From contig JAXHNL010000002.1 of the NCBI GenBank assembly GCA_034520565.1, positions 832,001 to 896,000 of the forward strand: a DNA stretch of 64,000 nt. Reading direction: 5' to 3'. The DNA is from Halodesulfurarchaeum sp. (GTDB lineage Archaea > Halobacteriota > Halobacteria > Halobacteriales > Halobacteriaceae). Every line of letters begins with the position of its first letter. Within the stretch, counting starts at the first letter, position 1. The translations under genes and the position numbers were made by a program. Shown here in pieces: positions 1-47,649 of the stretch. Below the pieces are notes generated by a model. That model was given only the letters and a program-made list of their open reading frames with translations, had not been told where the DNA came from and searched no databases.

Positions 1-2123
1 GAAGCGGAAGTACGCCGAAATCGAGCAGGACGAGCTTCGGCGCCGTCTAGTGTCTATGGCTAACGTTCACACCGCCGAAAGATTTGATATCGATGTACCG
101 AGTGGAGCCTACGAACGAATGGCGAAGGCACTAGAGGATGATAACAGGTGGGGGGGGGGCGGTTGCTGAGACAGATTGGTTCAAAACGGCACAGTCGTTG
201 GCTGAGCAATGGGATTTCTATCATTGGAAACTAGCATTTCCAGAAGTGTTCTATGAAAAAGGAGGCGAGTTGAAAGAAGGAGGCGGATTCGATGCGGTGA
301 TCGGCAACCCGCCTTATGTGTCAAATTGGAAATTAACCGAGATGAATGAACATCTCCCGGACCACTTAGAAAATCTATATCCGGATGTTGCTGTAGGACA
401 TTGGGATTTTTTTGTACCGTTCTGTTACAGAGCGGTTTCTCTTACTAGCCAAAGTGGATATCAATCGTTTATTACTCCGACCTCGCTTGCCACGGAAAAA
501 TATGCAAGAGAACTTCGTGATTTCCTTATAAAAGAATGTCAGTTGGAGTCTTTAGTCAACTTCGGGGAACACCGCGTCTTCAACCACGTAGATAGACAAT
601 ATGTGGTCTATATTGTTTCACCCACTTCACGTAACGAAGAATGTCAAATCGTTACCTATGATGGCGTTGATTTCCGTCCAGAGTACACCATCGATCCTCG
701 CGAATTTCTTGAATATTCGAATTCAATGCTAAGAATCGACATATCCCAACGAGATATTAGTATTAAAAACAAAATTGAGAAACAAAGCATCCGAACTGGT
801 CATCTATGTTGTGTTAATCCCGGAGTAGTTGCTCACAGTGCAAAGGACAGTCCTCTCGATTTCAATAAAGATGACGTAATCGTAGGAAATCCATCCTCAA
901 ACGCTGTGAAGTACCTTTCTGGGAAAGATATTGACCGCCACCAGATTGTATGGGGTGGGAAATATATGGAGTATTATAAGCATCAAAAATATTTCCACCG
1001 TCCAAAATTCCCGGACCTTTTCGAATCACCGAAAATTATGTTCTCCGGCATAAGTAGTGAGAAAAACCGGATAAAGAGTGTTTACGACTCGGAAGGTTAC
1101 TTTACAAATCATAACATCAACCATGCTACCTTATGGAGAGAAAGCATCCAACAGCACCACTCCTCAGCAGATTATGAAATAGCAGACAATGTAGAGAAAT
1201 ATAACATGAAGTACATTTCTGCTATCGTGAACTCAACTTTGATGGCATACTATTTCTCTAACTTCTTAGCAACGGGAACTCTTCAAGGATCATATAGTAG
1301 TGTCTACCCAGAGAATATCCGACAACTCCCCATCAAGATCCTACCTGATAGTGTGAATCTTTCCGATTCCGGAACGGAAGGAAGAGCTCTTATGGAAAAA
1401 GGAGAAGAGATTGAAAAGTTAGAAACGCTCCCTAAAATCTTAAACCAAAAAGATACATCCATTGAAACTTTAGCGAACACATTAGTTTACTTATTGGTTT
1501 CAATTCGAGAGGCAAGTGATGAACGAGGCACACTCTCGTTGGATCTCAGAACGTATCTCAGCGGATATTCACAAGGATCAGTGCTTCCAGAGGTAGCATC
1601 GTATCAGCCCGGTGCCAATCCAGAAAGCATTCTACATTCAACTAAGCAAGATTATAAGAACCTTCGAATCGGCACAGTCACCTGCGAACGCGAAACCGAA
1701 TCCACGGTAGTTGTCCACGCTACAGCCCGCTACAAACCCGACGACGAAGACGCCCACAAAACCGACCAGTGGGGCTACACCGAAACCGAGCCGATCCCAG
1801 CGATGCGCCTCATGGACCTCTCCGAAACCGAGGCCGACCTCGTGGAGGCCTTCGTCCCGGTCGCCGTCGAGAAGGCCGGTGGCTTCGCCGGGTTCCGCGA
1901 GACGGCCACGAAAACGAACTCGCTGATCGACCGCCTGGAGGCGATCACGCTTCCCGATCCCGACGACGTGGCCGACGACCTCGATCGGTACAACGAGGCC
2001 GTCGAACGGGCAGCGGAACTCGATGAGAAGATCCAGCAGACCGACGATCTGATCGACGAGATTGTCTACGAACTCTACGGGTTGACCGAGGAGGAGATCG
2101 AGATCGTGGAGGAATCTGTTTGA
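1..2123 (+). CDS. Eco57I/type IIG-like N6-adenine DNA methyltransferase (restriction-modification), 5'-truncated by the window edge, frameshifted at G10 run 150-159
   Basis: FYHWKLAFPEVF...GFDAVIGNPPY amino-MTase motif IV, TaqI_C-like specificity region, C-terminal DDLIDEIVYELYGLTEEEI tail. The frame starting at nt 2 (…RLVSMANVHTAERFDIDVPSGAYERMAKALEDDNRW) is open up to the G run and joins the 138..2123 frame if one G is removed. Confidence 0.85.
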
Positions 2124-2311
2124 GCGGTAGTCAATGAACGCATCCAATTCAAAGGAACGATAACTCTCCAATCTTATTGTAATCTTCTTCTTACTAAATT
2201 GTCAATTACCTCCTCGTATCGTTAGACGGTGAAGCAACCCTTCTGGACTGGCGAAATCATCAATAGAACTCCGTGGGAATTATTAACAATCAACTCCGTG
2301 AAGGAAATTAG

Positions 2312-4318
2312 ATGAAAGTCAACCGAGTTAGGGTTCAAAATTACAAGCCTATTATCGATAGCGGTTGGGTTGATGTAGAGGGTGGCATAACAACCCTTAT
2401 AGGCGGCAATGAAAGTGGAAAAACTTCGTTCTTAGAAGCGATTCGCTCATTTGGAGACGATGAACCATATTCTGGGTCAGAGATTTGCGATCAAATAGAT
2501 TCGAACAAATCGAAGGACGAACTACCAATTGTCACCATCGAGTTCCAGATGGAGATGGAGGATATTGAGACAATTCAGGAATCAGATAGCGATGTAACAA
2601 ACAAAGAGTTTAAAATAACCAAATTCGCAGATGGCTCAAAGATTAAACAAGATAGAGTGTTCATCGGGGAAGACTACAAATTTTCCAAAGTCATTGAGCC
2701 AACTTTAGCGAGTCTTAAGGATATGACCGATGACTTTGAGGATTTAGCCGAGAGAATGGGTGGTCAATATCGGCAACACTACTCGGAGGAGCTCCAACCA
2801 GTATTAGAGGAGATTGTAAAAAGTGAACATGAAGAAGATGATTTCTTAGATTTGTATAATGAACTTGAAACTGCTCTTAACAATATCCCCGAGGATAACA
2901 ATGAAATCAAAAATAAAAAAGAAGAATATCTACAAATTTGGGAAAATGAAGAAAAGCGCATTTTTGACAAGATTTCAGACTTTCCAAATCTCAACGAATA
3001 CCTGCCTAACATTGTTTACCACTCTGAATTTGACCTAATTTCTGATGAGGTAAATGAGTCATCCTTGGACTCGGAAGAATTCAAAACTTTTAGAAATTTC
3101 TTGGAGATAGTTGGAATTAATCCGGATGAATTCTCAGAGTTAAGTCCAATTGAGCGCAGGAGAGTTACTGATAGGGCTGAAGGGGAAATTGAGGGGGAAG
3201 TGAACAAAATCTGGGAACAGAAGGAGGTAGAGGTAGATTTGTACTATGAAAATGAAATATTCTACGCCCAGATCAAGGATGATCGGATCCGAGATGACCA
3301 AGCGGTGGATAGGGAATTACGACGACCTTCAGAACGTAGCAAAGGATTCCAATGGTTTTTCTCATTTTATATAAATCTCACCGCGCAGTCAGAGAAAAGT
3401 CAAGATAATTCCCTCATACTACTTGATGATCCTGCGGTATTTCTACATCCACAAGGCAAACGCAATTGGCTGGAGGCAATTGAAGATCTGTCGGATGGTA
3501 ACCAAATCATCTATTCAACTCATTCTCCTTTCTTGATTAGAAAAGATTACCCACGTAGGATTAGGTTAGTTTCGGACCAAGGTGATTTAGGCTCGAAGGT
3601 TATGAGTGAACTCCACAAGGGTGATTCAACCACACTAGAGCCTCTTAGGAATGCATTAGGAATCGGGCTAGGTGACTCACCATTTGTTTCGAAAAGAAAG
3701 ATACTCGTAGAGGGGATCTCAGATTATAATATCCTAATCGGGGTGGCGAATTACTTCAGAGACCATCTAGAGGAAGATATTCTTGACTGGTCTGAGGTCA
3801 CAGTTATGCCAACAAATGGTGCGGATCAAATGATACAAGCTGCAAAATGGGTTGCCTCCGAAGAATTCTCTTACGCCCTGTTATTGGATAATGACGAAAA
3901 AGGAAAACAAGTCCAAGATGACATATCGGAGCATCATCAGGATGTAGATGATGATCGGGTATTTTTACTTCATAAGGAAGAGGGACCACCATTCCATCTG
4001 GAAATAGAAGACATGTTCGCTCCCGAATTTCTCATAGATTGCGTCAACGAAGCATATTCGGAACAATTTGACGATTGGTCTCGGATTGACATTGAAGAGG
4101 ACGAGGATGAAACCTGGCTAATTGAGGGTGTGGAATATTCAGGTCGCAAAATCATGTCTAAACTGACCAAAATTTTCGACGAACGAGAACGAGGCGACCC
4201 TGATAAAGTTCTCATCGCAAATGAAATCCGAGACAGACTTACATCTGGCCACAATGATCTTGAGTCAGGAGCCGAATCATTCAAACACATTTTAGGAAAA
4301 ATACGAAATGTAACTTGA
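2312..4318 (+). CDS. OLD-family ATP-dependent endonuclease (ABC/AAA_15 ATPase + TOPRIM)
   Basis: N-terminal VQNYKPI, Walker A GGNESGKT, signature-like SKGFQWFFSF, Walker B LILLDDP, H-loop STHSP, TOPRIM VEGISD and DNDEKG. Confidence 0.85.
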   Translation: MKVNRVRVQNYKPIIDSGWVDVEGGITTLIGGNESGKTSFLEAIRSFGDDEPYSGSEICDQIDSNKSKDELPIVTIEFQMEMEDIETIQESDSDVTNKEFKITKFADGSKIKQDRVFIGEDYKFSKVIEPTLASLKDMTDDFEDLAERMGGQYRQHYSEELQPVLEEIVKSEHEEDDFLDLYNELETALNNIPEDNNEIKNKKEEYLQIWENEEKRIFDKISDFPNLNEYLPNIVYHSEFDLISDEVNESSLDSEEFKTFRNFLEIVGINPDEFSELSPIERRRVTDRAEGEIEGEVNKIWEQKEVEVDLYYENEIFYAQIKDDRIRDDQAVDRELRRPSERSKGFQWFFSFYINLTAQSEKSQDNSLILLDDPAVFLHPQGKRNWLEAIEDLSDGNQIIYSTHSPFLIRKDYPRRIRLVSDQGDLGSKVMSELHKGDSTTLEPLRNALGIGLGDSPFVSKRKILVEGISDYNILIGVANYFRDHLEEDILDWSEVTVMPTNGADQMIQAAKWVASEEFSYALLLDNDEKGKQVQDDISEHHQDVDDDRVFLLHKEEGPPFHLEIEDMFAPEFLIDCVNEAYSEQFDDWSRIDIEEDEDETWLIEGVEYSGRKIMSKLTKIFDERERGDPDKVLIANEIRDRLTSGHNDLESGAESFKHILGKIRNVT

Positions 4319-4346
4319 AATTAGTGATTTAAAGTTTACAATACTG

Positions 4347-4789
4347 ATGTGGGTCGCAGAAGCCAATCTTGAACCGGAAGGTGGTCTATGTCCAGATTAT
4401 GTTGCGTACGATGAGACGGTCGTCAAAGTCAAAGACGAGCGGTTCAGACTCGTGGCGGCGGACGAGTCTAATGCAAACAACATCCTGTGTTTTGGCCTAT
4501 TTTGTTGAGTAATACAACAATGACGAAGATGTTTTTGTGCAATCTCAAAGGAAAACACGCTTGCAAGGATGCCGAATATTTATCGATGGTGCGACGTGGT
4601 TGAATGCTGGGTAATTTGAACTTGGTATGTGCTTTCGAAACGAAACGGTGGAAACCTTGGTAAACGCATATTTCAATTGATAAACCAACGAACTAATTAT
4701 TTTGTAATATATTTTCGCGGACAAGTCTAAACGGTCGAGAACAGGGGTAAGGTGCAAAACTGCTCGGAATTAGTTTATCTGAACACACC
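4347..4789 (+). mobile_element. Degenerate IS6-family transposase remnant (3' part) with right terminal repeat-like sequence
   Basis: Manual translation gives WVAEANLEPEGGLCPDYVAYDETVVKVKDERFRLVAA, then broken frames MFLCNLKGKH…DAE…IDGATWL…KRIFQ…QRT, resembling the haloarchaeal IS6 DDE core. Ends in TTATCTGAACACACC (4775-4789), like haloarchaeal IS6 ends. Multiple stops and frameshifts. Confidence 0.7.
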
Positions 4790-4858
4790 TGCTGAATTTG
4801 GTGGCAGAAATTGATTAGAGATGAGAGTTCATCAACGCAAAATATCTAGTATCACCAT

Positions 4859-5551
4859 CTATTTTTCTGACTCTTTATTTTCATTGAAATATTCCTCAAG
4901 GTTTTCGGAATCAAAACTAAGATAAACCGAATCTGGACGGAATTGGCCAACTAACCCCAATAGTGTCGAGGGCACGAATGTTAGTAGGAGAAGGCCTAGA
5001 AGGGGCCAAAGCCCATGTAGATATGCAACTGATCCTGAAGTCACGGAATCAACTACACTCAATCCAAAGAAAATCACTGCTATTACTGCGGAAGCTGCTG
5101 AAATAGTCAACAGCCAAAAACATTCCCCACTCGTTTGTTTCGATCTATTACTGGTGGCTCCTATGTATTCTCGGAACTCCTTATCATTAATTTCACCGCT
5201 GAGGTAGTTCTCGAAAACTGTTAACTCGGGATTTAATGATGCCCGAGACCTGACGAACGCGCTTGTTGCCGCCCCCGCAGAGAACAGCCAAAAGACTCCT
5301 CCTCCAAACGCATAGAGATTCACGAAGAATAGTTCAAACTGATTGAGCCCTTGAAGTTGGAACAGAACCGGAGCGGCCACTAAGATACTGGCAATAAGTA
5401 GGTTAATTTGTAACATTTTCAGGGCATGATTCGCTTGTTCTGTTTTACGACTCTGTATGTGATCAAGATAGAGACGAGCCCCATCTCCTATTTCGGGCAA
5501 AATTTTGCTTTCGGATGGATCATCTCCCATACTTAATTCCCATTTAGGCAC
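4859..5551 (-). CDS. Hypothetical multi-pass membrane protein (about 4 TM helices)
   Basis: 230-aa ATG ORF in AT-rich DNA, two pairs of hydrophobic segments, acidic tail. Confidence 0.7.
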   Translation of the reverse strand: MPKWELSMGDDPSESKILPEIGDGARLYLDHIQSRKTEQANHALKMLQINLLIASILVAAPVLFQLQGLNQFELFFVNLYAFGGGVFWLFSAGAATSAFVRSRASLNPELTVFENYLSGEINDKEFREYIGATSNRSKQTSGECFWLLTISAASAVIAVIFFGLSVVDSVTSGSVAYLHGLWPLLGLLLLTFVPSTLLGLVGQFRPDSVYLSFDSENLEEYFNENKESEK

Positions 5552-5639
5552 CCCGATTATTCTTTGGGAACCATTGACTGAACTTCATTTATTTCCATTT
5601 CTCGTTTCACCATACCATCTCCGTGTGGGTGCGAGAATT

Positions 5640-5904
5640 GCATACCGCGACGAGCGGCGCGGGTCGCGGTTTCACCGGACGAGCGAAGCGAGTCCGGCCT
5701 TTTTCCCCAAGTTTTGTGAGGAATGGTTCGCCGGAGGCGAATCCGACGAACAAAAAGTGGGATGCCACCTCCCGGATTTGAACCGAAGGAAGACATGCTC
5801 ACTCGCTTCGCTCGTTGCGCGTGCCTTCCAGGGCTCAAATCCGGTCGGGACACGTTCTGGATTCGAACGCTCCTCGCTACGCTCGTCGGTTCGAATCACA
5901 GAAG
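5640..5904. repeat. Hairpin-rich tRNA-linked repeat region with 23-bp direct copy of the tRNA-Phe 3' end (5763-5785, att-like)
   Basis: tgccacctcccggatttgaaccg at 5763-5785 and 5905-5927. Stem-loops carry CGAGCGNAGCGAG at 5680-5692 (+), 5802-5814 (-) and 5873-5885 (-). Confidence 0.85.
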
Positions 5905-5978
5905 TGCCACCTCCCGGATTTGAACCGGGGACAGCTCGATCTTCAGTCGAGTGCTCTCCCAGTCTGAGCTAAGGCGGC
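5905..5978 (-). tRNA. tRNA-Phe (GAA)
   Basis: GCCGCCTTAGCTCAGACTGGGAGAGCA-CTCGA-CTGAAGA-TCGAG-CTGTCCCCGGTTCAAATCCGGGAGGTGGCA folds as a cloverleaf, anticodon GAA, no encoded CCA. Confidence 0.97.
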
Positions 5979-45030: not shown

Positions 45031-46478
45031 TCCCCCACCTCCATCTCGCCGGCTTCGAGGGCCGCGTCGACGGCGTTGAGCAGCGCCCGGGCCTTATCGA
45101 GGGTCTCCTCGTACTCCAGATCGGGGACCGAGTCGTGAACGATGCCCCCGCCAACGCGGAGATGGTACTCGTCCTCGTGCCTGACGAGCGTTCGGATGAC
45201 GATGTTGAGCGTGGCGCGCCCGTCAAAGCCGATGGCGGCCATGCTCCCGGTGTAGGGACCGCGCCGGGTCGACTCCACTTCCTCGATGATCTCCATCGTC
45301 CGCGGCTTTGGCGCCCCGGTGATCGTCCCGCCGGGGAACATCGCGCGGATGGCGTCGACCACGCCCGCGTCGGGACGGAGCCGTCCCGAGACGAGCGAAA
45401 CGAGGTGCATCACCTCGGAGTAGCGATCGACCCGGCGGTACTCGTCCACGGTAACGGTCCCGTACTCGGAAACCTTCCCGAGATCGTTTCGCTCGAGGTC
45501 CACGAGCATGGCGTGCTCGGCCCGCTCCTTCTCGTCGCCGGTGAGATCTGTCTCGAGCGCCTGGTCGTCAGCGTCGGTTTCCCCGCGCGGTCGCGTGCCG
45601 GCGATCGGTTCGGTCTCGACGCGATCACCCTCCCGCTCGAGGAGGAGTTCGGGACTCGCGCTCACGAGGTCGACGCCGGGGAATTCGATCAGTCCCGAAT
45701 AGGGGGCGGGGTTCACCGTCCGGAGTGCGTCGAAGGCCTCGACGGGATGGACCGCAGCTGGGGCCTCCAGCCGCTGTGAGATATTGACCTGGAAGGTGTC
45801 TCCCTCGCGGATGTACTCCTTGACGGTGCCGACCCGCTCGGCGTAGGCCACCCGGTCGGTCGAACTCTCGAACTCGGCGGTGTTCGTGGCGACCGGCGGC
45901 TCGCCCGCGTCGGGATCGCCCACCCGTATCCGCTCTGCGAGCGCTTCCAACCTGCCGACGCCGTGCTCGTAGGCCGCTTCGGGATCCTCCCCGATCCGGG
46001 GCGAGGCCACGATCGAGAGGGTCGGCTCGCCCTCGATCGGCATCCGCCAGGCGGCGATGGCGTCGTAGATCCCCATCTGGAGGTGCGGGAGCCCGCGGTC
46101 GTCCACCGCGTCCGCGGGCAGATCCTCCAGATCCCGGACCACGTCATAGGAGAGCCAGCCGAAGAGCCCACCCGGGTACGGGATCTCGCAGTCGGTCTCG
46201 ACCAGGTCCTCGTCCGCCAGATAGGTTTCGAGCCGGTCCAGGGCGCCCGGGCCGTCGACGGTCAGGAAGTCGCTCGGGTCGACGCCGAAGTAGCCCCACC
46301 CCTCGCGGCCGCCGGAGGTCTCGAAGAAGACGGACGGCTCCGACCCGCGTGCCCGCCGATAGGCCGCCCAGGGATCCGCTTCGACGGTCCCGACGATCGG
46401 GGCCCGGGCGTTCGCGGGGGCGCCGGCGGCCCGTTCGAGGAACGTCGAACGGGACGTCGTTACCGTGAACGCAGCCAT
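45027..46478 (-). CDS. pabB: Aminodeoxychorismate synthase component I
   Basis: [50 protein letters not shown]. Confidence 0.9.
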
Positions 46479-46579
46479 TAGTCGTGGAAGGTTTGCGCCG
46501 ATTCAAGACACTTTGGGTCTTGCTCGGTCCTGCCGTTGGTTGGGTACACAGGTGGGCGTGATCGACTTGCCCGGCAACT

Positions 46580-46727
46580 TCGCCCGCTACGCGGGCTCGT
46601 CCCACTCGTCCTCGAAAAACTGGTGGACGAGGTCCACCATTGTCCCCCTCGCTCCGCTCGCGGGACTCCCCTGGATTTCGAGGCCGCCCTCGCCCGCTAC
46701 GCGGGCTCGTCCCACTCGTCCTCGAAA
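46580..46727. repeat. 38-bp direct repeat duplicating the 3' end of the upstream CDS, separated by a hairpin-rich spacer
   Basis: tcgcccgctacgcgggctcgtcccactcgtcctcgaaa at 46580-46617 and 46690-46727; spacer has ggtggac/gtccacc and gtccc/gggac stems and ctcgctccgctcg. Confidence 0.92.
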
Positions 46728-47239
46728 TCCCGCACCGACCGGTATTCCTCGACGAACTCGCGCACGTCGAACTCGGCCCGGTGCTCGCTGAAGGCGTCGG
46801 TTGCCGAATCGTCCCCGGCCGCCGTCACCGCCTGGGCCATCACCTCGAGGACGGTCCGGACGACGATCTCGTGGAACTCGCGGGCGTCGAAGTCCGCGAT
46901 CCAGGCCGCCGCGTAACCGACGGAGCCGTCCTCGCTCGCGTCGTGGGCGACGACCTGCTCCGGATGGGCGTCCATCACGAGTCCCATGAGCGGGACCATG
47001 CCGAACTCCGCCATTTCCGTGCCCTCGGCCGCGAGGGTCTCCGCGAGGACCTCGGTCACCGATTCCGGCAGGAATCGAGAGGGCGGGTGGGGATCGAGCA
47101 CGACGGCGTGCTGTTTTCCACAATCACACCTGAACTCTCGGAGGCCCAGATCCAGGTCGTCGCTCACGATGGTCTCGCCACAGGACAACTCGATCGGCTG
47201 GCCGCTCGGTCCCGTCGGAACCCCGGGTTGGGCCGTCAT
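46697..47239 (-). CDS. Conserved haloarchaeal protein (DUF5815-like) with Cys/His cluster
   Basis: LSCGE…DLDLGLREFRCDCGKQHAVV.D.HPPSRF; ATGA overlap with upstream gene. Confidence 0.8.
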   Translation of the reverse strand: MTAQPGVPTGPSGQPIELSCGETIVSDDLDLGLREFRCDCGKQHAVVLDPHPPSRFLPESVTEVLAETLAAEGTEMAEFGMVPLMGLVMDAHPEQVVAHDASEDGSVGYAAAWIADFDAREFHEIVVRTVLEVMAQAVTAAGDDSATDAFSEHRAEFDVREFVEEYRSVRDFEDEWDEPA

Positions 47240-47649
47240 GGCCAATCCTCCCGGTCCGGTTCGCCATCAGGCTTCCGCTGTTCGCCCACTGTCCAGCCCG
47301 CCGCGTCGGCGGCCTCCTCGACTGGCAGGTACTCCCAGCCCGCGGCCTCGGCCCGTTCGCGATCCCGTTCGGTCGTCCCGATCATGACGTAGCGGTCGGA
47401 TTCGAACTGTTCGCGAACGCTTTCGAGTGTGTCCTGGGCGCCCTTCGGCCCCGAAAAGAAGTCCTCGCGGATGCGTCGCTTCCGGGTGAAGTTCGTCAGC
47501 ACGTGTGTCGGTTCCTCGGCCGACACGACGCCTGCATACCGGGTCCATTGCCGGGCGTCCGCGAATGCGGTCCCCGGCTCGGCCAGGGCCTGCAGAGCCG
47601 AGAGGTCGAAGGCAAGCGTCATTTCCCCGCCCGCGTCCGGCGTGTCCAT
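47236..47649 (-). CDS. Conserved haloarchaeal protein (degenerate HAD-like)
   Basis: MTLAFDLSAL…DARQWTRYAGVVS…DFFSGP…RYVMIG…GWEYLPVEEAA. Confidence 0.8.
   Translation of the reverse strand: MDTPDAGGEMTLAFDLSALQALAEPGTAFADARQWTRYAGVVSAEEPTHVLTNFTRKRRIREDFFSGPKGAQDTLESVREQFESDRYVMIGTTERDRERAEAAGWEYLPVEEAADAAGWTVGEQRKPDGEPDREDWP

Follow-up and report, generated by a model that had tools for sequence, protein, structure and literature searches.

We analysed a window of 64,000 nucleotides from Halodesulfurarchaeum sp. (GenBank assembly GCA_034520565.1, contig JAXHNL010000002.1, positions 832001 to 896000), in which the end of a protein-coding gene is followed by a short non-coding structure that we term a gene-end hairpin cassette. 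The gene, at 46697-47245 on the minus strand, encodes a DUF5815 protein of 182 amino acids (taken from the list of open reading frames; Pfam PF19132, E = 2.4e-63). The protein ends in DFEDEWDEPA, followed by a TAG stop codon, and orthologues were found in 35 of 41 relatives. The 3' end of this gene is present twice, since positions 46580-46617 and 46690-46727 form a direct repeat of 38 nt with 100% identity at an offset of 110 bp. The gene-proximal copy, T1 (46690-46727, minus strand), comprises the last 28 coding bases, the stop codon (46697-46699) and 7 bases past it. The distal copy, T2 (46580-46617, minus strand), is followed by the flank that directly adjoins the gene in relatives. The DUF5815 gene and its 3' context are undamaged by the cassette.

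The 72 bp between the two copies consist of an inverted piece of the gene end and two hairpins. The inverted piece, T' (CCTCGAAATCC, 46673-46683, minus strand), is the reverse complement of 46720-46730 (GGATTTCGAGG, minus strand), with which it forms an 11-bp helix. The match is exact over 11 nt and reaches 93% over 14 nt, and the in-gene partner extends, and pairs, 3 bases outside the repeat. Hairpin H (46642-46666, minus strand), recognized from sequence and covariation, has the minus-strand stem GTCCCG/GGGGAC and carries the tip CGAGCGGAGCGAG at 46648-46660; on the plus strand it reads GTCCCC/CGGGAC (46642-46647/46661-46666) around this 13-mer. Hairpin h2, TGGTGGAC-CTC-GTCCACCA (46621-46639, minus strand), was recognized from sequence, folding and covariation across nine genomes. 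The end of the gene itself can also form a hairpin, GCCCGC-GTA-GCGGGC (46692-46706, minus strand; sequence and folding), with the stop codon at its tip. Stop-codon hairpins of a similar kind occur in cassette-free alleles of G009, G067 and G064 (G000 is the genome of this window, and the other G numbers denote compared genomes).

On the gene strand the order is T1, T', H, h2, T2 and the original downstream flank, that is, direct-inverted-direct, and T1 and T' enclose the stop codon within one long hairpin. The four elements named by the initial annotation (repeat, inverted piece, hairpin and gene end) are all found where it had placed them. An inverted match of at least 11 nt between adjacent stretches of 60 and 72 nt was obtained at 0.28% of 20,000 random places in the genome. 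The cassette region folds more stably than shuffled sequences (z = -2.6 as RNA and -3.4 as DNA), and the helix between the gene end and T' appears in the RNA and DNA folds alike. The sole reading frame in the insert has 17 codons and extends into T2; it opens at an ATG ahead of T2 (MVDLVHQFFEDEWDEPA, 46587-46640, minus strand) and is probably incidental, because G059 lacks an in-frame start. No second (donor) copy of the 72-bp insert was found in the genome, where short-word BLAST matched the tip region only, over at most 16 nt. Taken together, the 110 bp are very probably one copy of a haloarchaeal gene-end hairpin cassette.

Filled and empty alleles, whose comparison the initial annotation had proposed, both exist. 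When the gene end was compared in 20 loci, the insert was missing from all 10 other Halodesulfurarchaeum genomes that have the gene, each with a single copy of the end, and also from nine genomes of other genera. In the closest relatives (91% and 86% protein identity), the flank that here follows T2 stands directly after the gene. Single-copy alleles with the same flank imply either that 110 bp (72 + 38) were inserted with a 38-bp target duplication or that the empty alleles are precise deletions. Among the nine genomes of other genera, G012 has its gene end duplicated in another way, in tandem (L019), with a 29-nt copy after a 24-nt spacer and without H. In G397 (L206) the end is likewise without H and consists of tandem 38-nt units, each ending in the last 11 nt of the gene.

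The genome assembly comprises 1.86 Mb in two contigs and is 81% complete. Evidence from public sequencing runs consisted of contigs assembled with words of 31 letters. In run X1, from the likely source sample, a single piece spans 46588-46719, that is, the entire insert and 30 nt of each copy, with zero differences, and the 38-mer has a depth of 13.9 against 7.6 and 6.6 in the flanks, a ratio of about two. These contigs fit the assembly but do not prove the linkage, since the 38-bp repeat exceeds the word size and cannot be bridged. The same layout in eight other, separately assembled genomes argues against an artefact, and misassembly is unlikely. A close relative is represented in runs X2 and X4 by a contig that agrees with both flanks (97% identity on the gene side) and has 112 other letters replacing 46628-46689, which looks like a filled allele with a different interior. 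Run X4 also contains the empty site of another relative (46350-46950 compared).

A search with the 72-bp insert retrieved near-copies of hairpin H in G043 (97% over 29 nt) and G003 (96% over 28 nt), together with matches of 80% identity that extend across 58-62 nt and come from three genomes of another genus. These longer matches sit at the orthologous DUF5815 gene end, with their parts in the same order. A wider cassette search, covering 401 genomes of the order with subsequent inspection of 30 loci, yielded full cassettes in nine genomes (G000, G053, G056, G059, G061, G189, G227, G255 and G283) and decayed cassettes without the distal copy in three (G055, G057 and G251). The gene tree of 48 orthologous loci accordingly holds nine full, three decayed and 36 empty alleles, so that the locus is not the fresh, isolated event implied by the initial annotation. 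The 12 cassette-bearing genomes represent at least five genera and two families. Carriers are scattered on the gene tree: G000 falls within a group of relatives with empty alleles, and in the other genus nearly the same protein is encoded in genomes with and without the cassette. When metagenomes were scanned for the stop-codon hairpin pattern, the 121 loci retrieved were GC-rich and unrelated, and BLAST of the fetched loci gave three matches of 26-45 nt and no relative.

The sequence behind the stop codon in G061, G189 and G227 repeats T1 in inverted form over nearly its full length (helices of 16+7, 10+8 and 11+6 bp), which makes the short T' of the window look like the remainder of a longer piece. 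T' of G061 matches the present end of the gene and not the distal copy, which shows five differences from the proximal one over ~38 positions. A module GGGAGTCCCG-tip-CGGGAC, together with TCCCCT, is also present in the tRNA-Arg(TCT) cassettes of G055 and G067, antisense to the tRNA; modules are thus exchanged between these cassettes and that of DUF5815. In G014 (C1:76175-76198; L179), a hairpin GTCCCG-CGAGCGGAGCGAG-CGGGA lies inside an apparent open frame of a larger gene.

Covariation was assessed in an alignment of the nine full DUF5815 cassettes. Within H, its tip and h2, 98% of the cells are paired, against 30-44% in slid controls, and nine of the 17 stem pairs have changed on both sides (in h2, four of eight). 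None of 500 shuffles reached the observed number of paired cells, the number of both-side changes or the covariation score; for the further pair types, 469 of the 500 attained the observed count. T' changes along with the local gene, giving three compensated combinations (ACTTCGA:TCGAAGT, ATTTCGA:TCGAAAT and AGTTCGA:TCGAACT), so that the central T1:T' pair is C:G, T:A or G:C, depending on the genome.

Sequence divergence of the cassette does not follow that of the gene. Between G059 and G053 the cassette core is 77% identical and the coding DNA 92%, whereas between G000 and G227 the values are 73% and 60%. The stem and tip of H are 71-88% identical between genomes whose coding DNA is only 49-65% identical; between close species, the cassette core changes faster than third codon positions. 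This uncoupling points to horizontal turnover or to strong constraint.

The tip of hairpin H links the DUF5815 locus to a larger set of structures. The window contains four exact copies of the 13-mer, which differ in the centre only (GAA, GAA, GTA and GGA). With at most one mismatch to the 13-mer, seven matches are found where 1.49 are expected, a number reached in none of 100 shuffles. In the whole genome there are 29 exact copies, retrieved with a pattern that fixes the other 12 bases, and their central base is A in 14, G in nine, C in five and T in one. Of these tips, 15 stand on a stem of at least four pairs, compared with 2.3% of random places. Of the 29, 17 follow a tRNA gene at a distance of at most 500 nt, where 0.34 would be expected (p = 8e-26), on the strand of the tRNA in 13 cases and antisense in four. 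The initial annotation had held that only the central base varies, as would be expected under selection for a GNA triloop. The first statement applies to the window and to the 29 pattern-found copies but not to the family, in whose tips five central bases vary (CGGAG, TAACG, TGGAA, CAGCG, CGAAG, CGACG and TGCAG), and the triloop has to be abandoned. The constant part is CGAG-N5-CGAG, kept in seven of the 10 tips compared, and stem positions covary. In the tRNA-linked tip variants CGAGCGAAGCGAG, CGAACGAAGTGAG and CGACCGAAGGGAG, positions 4 and 10 change together, which fits a mini-stem C-G, G.A, A.G, N-N', C-G closed by three bases.

Exact copies of 12-23 nt of their own 3' end, located 80-180 nt downstream, were found for 17 of the 44 tRNA genes; these copies do not include CCA. 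The tRNA genes with cassettes carry one to three units each, some as arrays of two or three. A typical unit comprises the tRNA end, at least one hairpin, an inverted T-loop piece (GGATTTGAGCC...), a tip hairpin, and GGTTCAAATCC followed by the tRNA-specific end, while that of tRNA-Cys reads T, stem-tip-stem, inverted T, stem-tip-stem, T. The same unit types recur behind different tRNAs. In many of them, the cassette itself supplies the T-loop-like part of the 22-23-nt repeat (e.g. GGTTCACAATCC, which has one additional C), leaving approximately the last 12-16 nt as tRNA-specific sequence. Behind tRNA-Val(CAC), the unit contains the end of tRNA-Val(GAC), with one mismatch to its own tRNA.

The comparison locus within the window is tRNA-Phe (5904-5978, minus strand). 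Its cassette (5786-5903, minus strand) has two hairpins with the tips CGAGCGTAGCGAG and CGAGCGAAGCGAG and an inverted T-loop piece at 5832-5844, and is followed by a direct copy of the last 23 nt of the tRNA (5763-5785, minus strand). The likeness in layout of the two loci, noted in the initial annotation, holds, and it is well supported that the DUF5815 cassette and the tRNA units are one family with one layout. The accompanying claim that the arms copy the local target applies to the flanking copies and, at DUF5815, to the inverted piece as well; behind tRNA genes the inverted piece follows its target only in part. Across the genus, nine tRNA-Phe loci were read, with zero, one or at least two units; in G009 and G004 the contig ends within the tRNA itself, and no unit adjoins the tRNA in G007 or in G011, where only 21 downstream bases are covered. 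The unit of the window has an orthologue in G001, whose first stem is different yet still paired.

A genome scan for direct-inverted-direct 9-mers returned 42 loci, 17 of them at tRNA genes. Only four non-tRNA loci contained at least two words, and all were AT-rich or coding chance matches. The scan misses the DUF5815 locus, because merely 8 nt of T' fall within the repeat. Since the non-tRNA scan loci inspected are due to chance, the DUF5815 locus is the sole non-tRNA case found in this genome. Mimicry of a T-loop by the DUF5815 gene end was considered and is not supported: the end has three mismatches in 12 to the nearest T-loop, a value equalled by ~20% (610 of 3,000) of random 48-nt windows. 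The gene ends of G283 and G227 come to within two mismatches (3% tail), which no other gene end reaches.

Several further features of this genome lie close to tRNA genes or tip hairpins. A conserved trailer module, (T)CCACTTTTT..TCGTCGGGTTC..GAACCACTC..CAAAAACTTGGGGAAAAAG, stands after the last end copy and is common to many tRNA genes (5690-5762 in the window, and others). Directly behind the distal copy of the tRNA-Phe end, positions 1-5600 of the window form an island of 40% GC (genome 62%); a third copy of this end was not found in the assembly. At C2:792959-793203 of G000, a stretch of 42 nt from the 5' half of tRNA-Cys recurs 166 nt upstream; a hairpin and a decayed 3' half come next, so that the whole resembles a broken copy of the tRNA carrying an insert where an intron would sit. 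At C2:355700-356100 and C2:762600-762800, two genes ending in Gly/Met-rich repeats of the GGM type, presumably thermosome genes, are followed by arrays of hairpins with tips of the same kind, among which no copy of the gene end was found.

Candidate enzymes were sought in the genome, which at 81% completeness gave no match to the reverse transcriptase profile PF00078 or to the Y1 (HUH) transposase profile PF01797. Insertion by target-primed reverse transcription is not supported, the tRNA-end copies lacking CCA as well. Four tyrosine recombinase loci, a Cas1 gene (C2:481594-482419) beside a CRISPR array with a 37-nt repeat (C2:482948-484056), and three TnpB genes are present, none of them linked to a cassette. 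The ends of TnpB-bearing insertion sequences (ISs) were rejected as a source of the hairpins, as the three copies have different end hairpins. For the idea that DUF5815 is the cassette's own enzyme, by comparison with the REP-associated tyrosine transposases (RAYTs) of repetitive extragenic palindromic (REP) sequences, the analysis found nothing for or against: there was no PDB sequence match with E<0.27, and a confidently predicted model (mean predicted local distance difference test score 80) had no Foldseek match with E<0.3 and a best VIA-align Z of 3.8. Rfam 15 gave no match up to E = 10 in 46450-46800, and only tRNA passed the threshold in the window.

Among described systems, the locus fits the class called insertion with long target duplication, which reportedly goes back to Nobusato et al. 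2000: an empty relative has a single copy, the repeat is longer than 30 bp and the insert contains neither a transposase nor an integrase. According to Furuta et al. 2010 (PMC2853133), such inserts are present or absent between relatives and are bounded by a variable repeat of more than 30 bp that is single in the empty genome. The same paper describes repeats that often overlap a gene 3' end or a tRNA, no mobility gene and an unknown mechanism. Those inserts are of kilobase size and carry restriction-modification genes, whereas the cassette consists of 72 bp of non-coding hairpins. It also differs from them in having an inverted copy of the target, in recurring at one gene across families and in sharing its modules with many tRNA loci.

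REPs resemble the cassettes in lying behind genes, in their mosaic arrays and alternating orientation, in their compensatory stems and in possibly ending or stabilizing transcripts. However, REPs are fixed sequences with a GTAG or CGTC tag that are moved by Y1 (RAYT) transposases, and their target is not copied. The arms of the cassette, in contrast, are copies of the target, and its 38-bp duplication also separates it from elements derived from IS200/IS605, which produce no target duplication. Bacterial REPs, bacterial interspersed mosaic elements (BIMEs) and REPINs appear in PMC3733652 as short palindromic repeats. Haloarchaeal MITEs (e.g. MITEHsal2) are, like the cassettes, small non-coding insertions that vary between strains, with fixed IS-related terminal inverted repeats and target duplications of 5-7 bp according to PMC7002104. 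The cassettes have no fixed ends, and their duplications measure 38 bp here and 12-23 nt at tRNAs. For the same reasons, the statement of the initial annotation that an ordinary DDE transposon does not fit was borne out.

Attachment-site duplications at tRNA genes and cis-mobilizable elements (CIMEs) have a direct repeat of the gene 3' end, stacked arrays and an intact gene, all of which are also seen in the cassettes. The direct repeat covers the 3' end of its target gene, as in an attL/attR pair. Unlike integrase-borne elements and CIMEs, the cassettes contain no integrase, cargo or remains of these, are tiny and of narrow size range, and include an inverted copy of the target. Moreover, many different targets are associated with the same hairpin modules, and the true islands of this genome (20 kb at tRNA-Pro and 8 kb at tRNA-Arg) are bounded by shorter tRNA-end copies of 14 nt only. 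The cassette lacks features of MITEs, IS200/IS605-REP elements, integrase scars and retroelements. In the literature searched (supplements aside), no account was found of cassettes that combine a direct copy of a gene end with an inverted one. The nearest published case, in PMC5217627, is a palindromic motif located ~10 bp behind tRNA genes of Methanopyrus kandleri.

How the cassette arose is less clear than what it consists of. Hairpin priming, template switching and a tiny element, the origins put forward in the initial annotation, are unproven. Our favoured account, that gene-end hairpin cassettes are made by copy-choice DNA synthesis and lost by recombination between T1 and T2, is in its entirety a tentative one, short of probable, and its first part, the strand-switching origin, taken by itself we advance with somewhat more reserve. 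A nascent strand that has copied the gene end would switch template twice. It would first fold back at the stop-codon hairpin, producing T', and would then turn at a very stable mini-hairpin, producing T2; hairpin modules could be picked up from other cassettes en route. Once established, the cassette would be inherited and quickly reshaped, the complementarity of its arms being kept by selection or by arm-to-arm correction. Recombination of T1 with T2 would remove it cleanly and restore the empty allele. GCGNAGC is described, in PMC13037366, as an extraordinarily stable DNA mini-hairpin. The near full-length inverted T1 in G061, G189 and G227 is a fold-back signature, and the duplications without H of the same gene end in G012 and G397 are as expected for a hotspot of strand switching.

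Several observations weigh against this origin. A local fold-back cannot be the source of the 13-nt tip or of the modules that different loci share; these must have been copied from elsewhere, which a simple strand switch leaves unexplained. T' in the window has just 11 nt, and the 13 nt expected between the hairpin and T' are replaced by eight unrelated bases. The tRNA-Val(CAC) unit with its tRNA-Val(GAC) end is better explained if a cassette was transferred along with its copy than by copying at the locus. The uncoupled divergence of cassette and gene counts in the same direction, and neither an enzyme nor an intermediate has been observed. Alternatively, the cassettes may be a new class of mobile DNA without fixed ends, whose hairpin modules, a few tens of bases in size, move between gene ends and rebuild the inverted and direct arms from the target, which would thereby escape damage, with a dedicated enzyme reading the CGAG-N5-CGAG tip; we regard this as possible but doubtful.

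The principal rival to strand switching is a tiny non-autonomous integrative element. The single strand would fold so that the target copy and T' mimic a double-stranded site, a tyrosine recombinase of the host or of a provirus would join it, and the repeats would be attL and attR. Such an element would resemble the integron attC site or the folded attP of CTX phage, in which an imperfect palindrome, folded as a single strand, rebuilds a recombination site, and which combine variable sequence and conserved structure with tandem arrays. To our knowledge, neither system duplicates tens of bases of its target. The discrete units of ~80-180 bp, arranged in arrays and without intermediate sizes, agree with this explanation, as do the foreign end in the tRNA-Val(CAC) cassette, the divergence uncoupled from the gene, the scatter of carriers on the gene tree, the four tyrosine recombinase loci and the tip lying on the strand of the tRNA in most cases. 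Nevertheless, with at least 17 different tRNA ends and a protein gene as targets, an equal number of attachment sites would be required unless the recombinase recognizes structure only, and no recombinase gene is linked to the cassettes. Both copies in the window are of the local gene type at 38 of 38 positions, whereas a crossover with a foreign site would leave hybrids, and T' of G061 fits the present end of its gene rather than the distal copy. The true islands of this genome, in turn, use only 14-nt copies. We consider an integrative element of this kind rather unlikely.

A selected structure of RNA (or DNA) at the 3' end of the transcript is, as an explanation in its own right, unlikely, although it can hold alongside either origin, strand switching or a recombining element. 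The hairpins would be a stack of the REP/BIME kind that ends or protects the transcript, or T1 and T2 would compete for T' in a switch, and the duplication would be the route by which the structure was built, not a trace of mobility. The two families show compensatory changes in H, h2 and T1:T', which speak for selection, as do the conservation of the stem and tip of H between genomes with strongly diverged coding DNA, the fold stability above that of shuffles, and T' following T1 in place in G061 and G055. Behind tRNA genes, the cassettes lie between the tRNA and the conserved T-rich trailer and should be co-transcribed. On the other hand, the cassette is missing at 36 of 48 loci, even in sister species with almost identical proteins, and between close species its core outpaces third codon positions. 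Pairing does not explain the exact copy, as T' offers no partner for 27 of the 38 bases of the repeat. An antisense orientation of the tip relative to the tRNA is seen in four of the 17 cases here, and also in G055 and G067. The sense strand shows no excess of G-T over A-C mismatches behind tRNAs (10 vs 9) or in the DUF5815 set (4 vs 12), in what is a crude and noisy count.

It is very improbable that the cassette is the scar of an integrated virus, plasmid or island of which nearly everything was later deleted, with the repeats as attachment sites. Integrase-borne elements are usually recognized by direct repeats of gene 3' ends, and low-GC islands do stand behind several tRNA end copies in this genome. 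Yet merely 72 bp separate the copies, unit sizes are confined to ~80-180 bp with nothing up to the islands of 8-20 kb, and the same 72-bp content is conserved at DUF5815 in other genera. In G002 and G004, which have different DNA behind the gene, neither an island nor a second gene-end copy was found in the 7 and 17 kb, respectively, that were examined downstream. Off-target integration by Cas1-Cas2, duplicating about one repeat length as in neo-CRISPR formation, is very unlikely: the genome has Cas1 and an array whose 37-nt repeat is close to the 38-bp duplication, but the insert is 72 bp of hairpins conserved between genera and not a ~36-bp spacer, tRNA units duplicate merely 12-23 nt, and other genera also carry this cassette.

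The gene-end hairpin cassette, an insertion with long target duplication built of REP-like hairpins, has a fair chance of forming a separate class. Small, structured inserts with a copy of the end of the gene that they follow seem to be common at haloarchaeal tRNA genes and are apparently undescribed. To these, the DUF5815 locus adds a protein gene as target, a clean contrast between filled and empty alleles, and a series of related cassettes that can be compared and that covary, and it shows that the process is not bound to tRNA sequence. If the cassettes are mobile, they represent DNA insertion that spares its target by a new route; if they are functional RNA ends, they would constitute an unrecognized layer of 3'-end control in archaea. 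Either way, they account for many of the short archaeal "tRNA fragments" that are usually taken for integrase scars.

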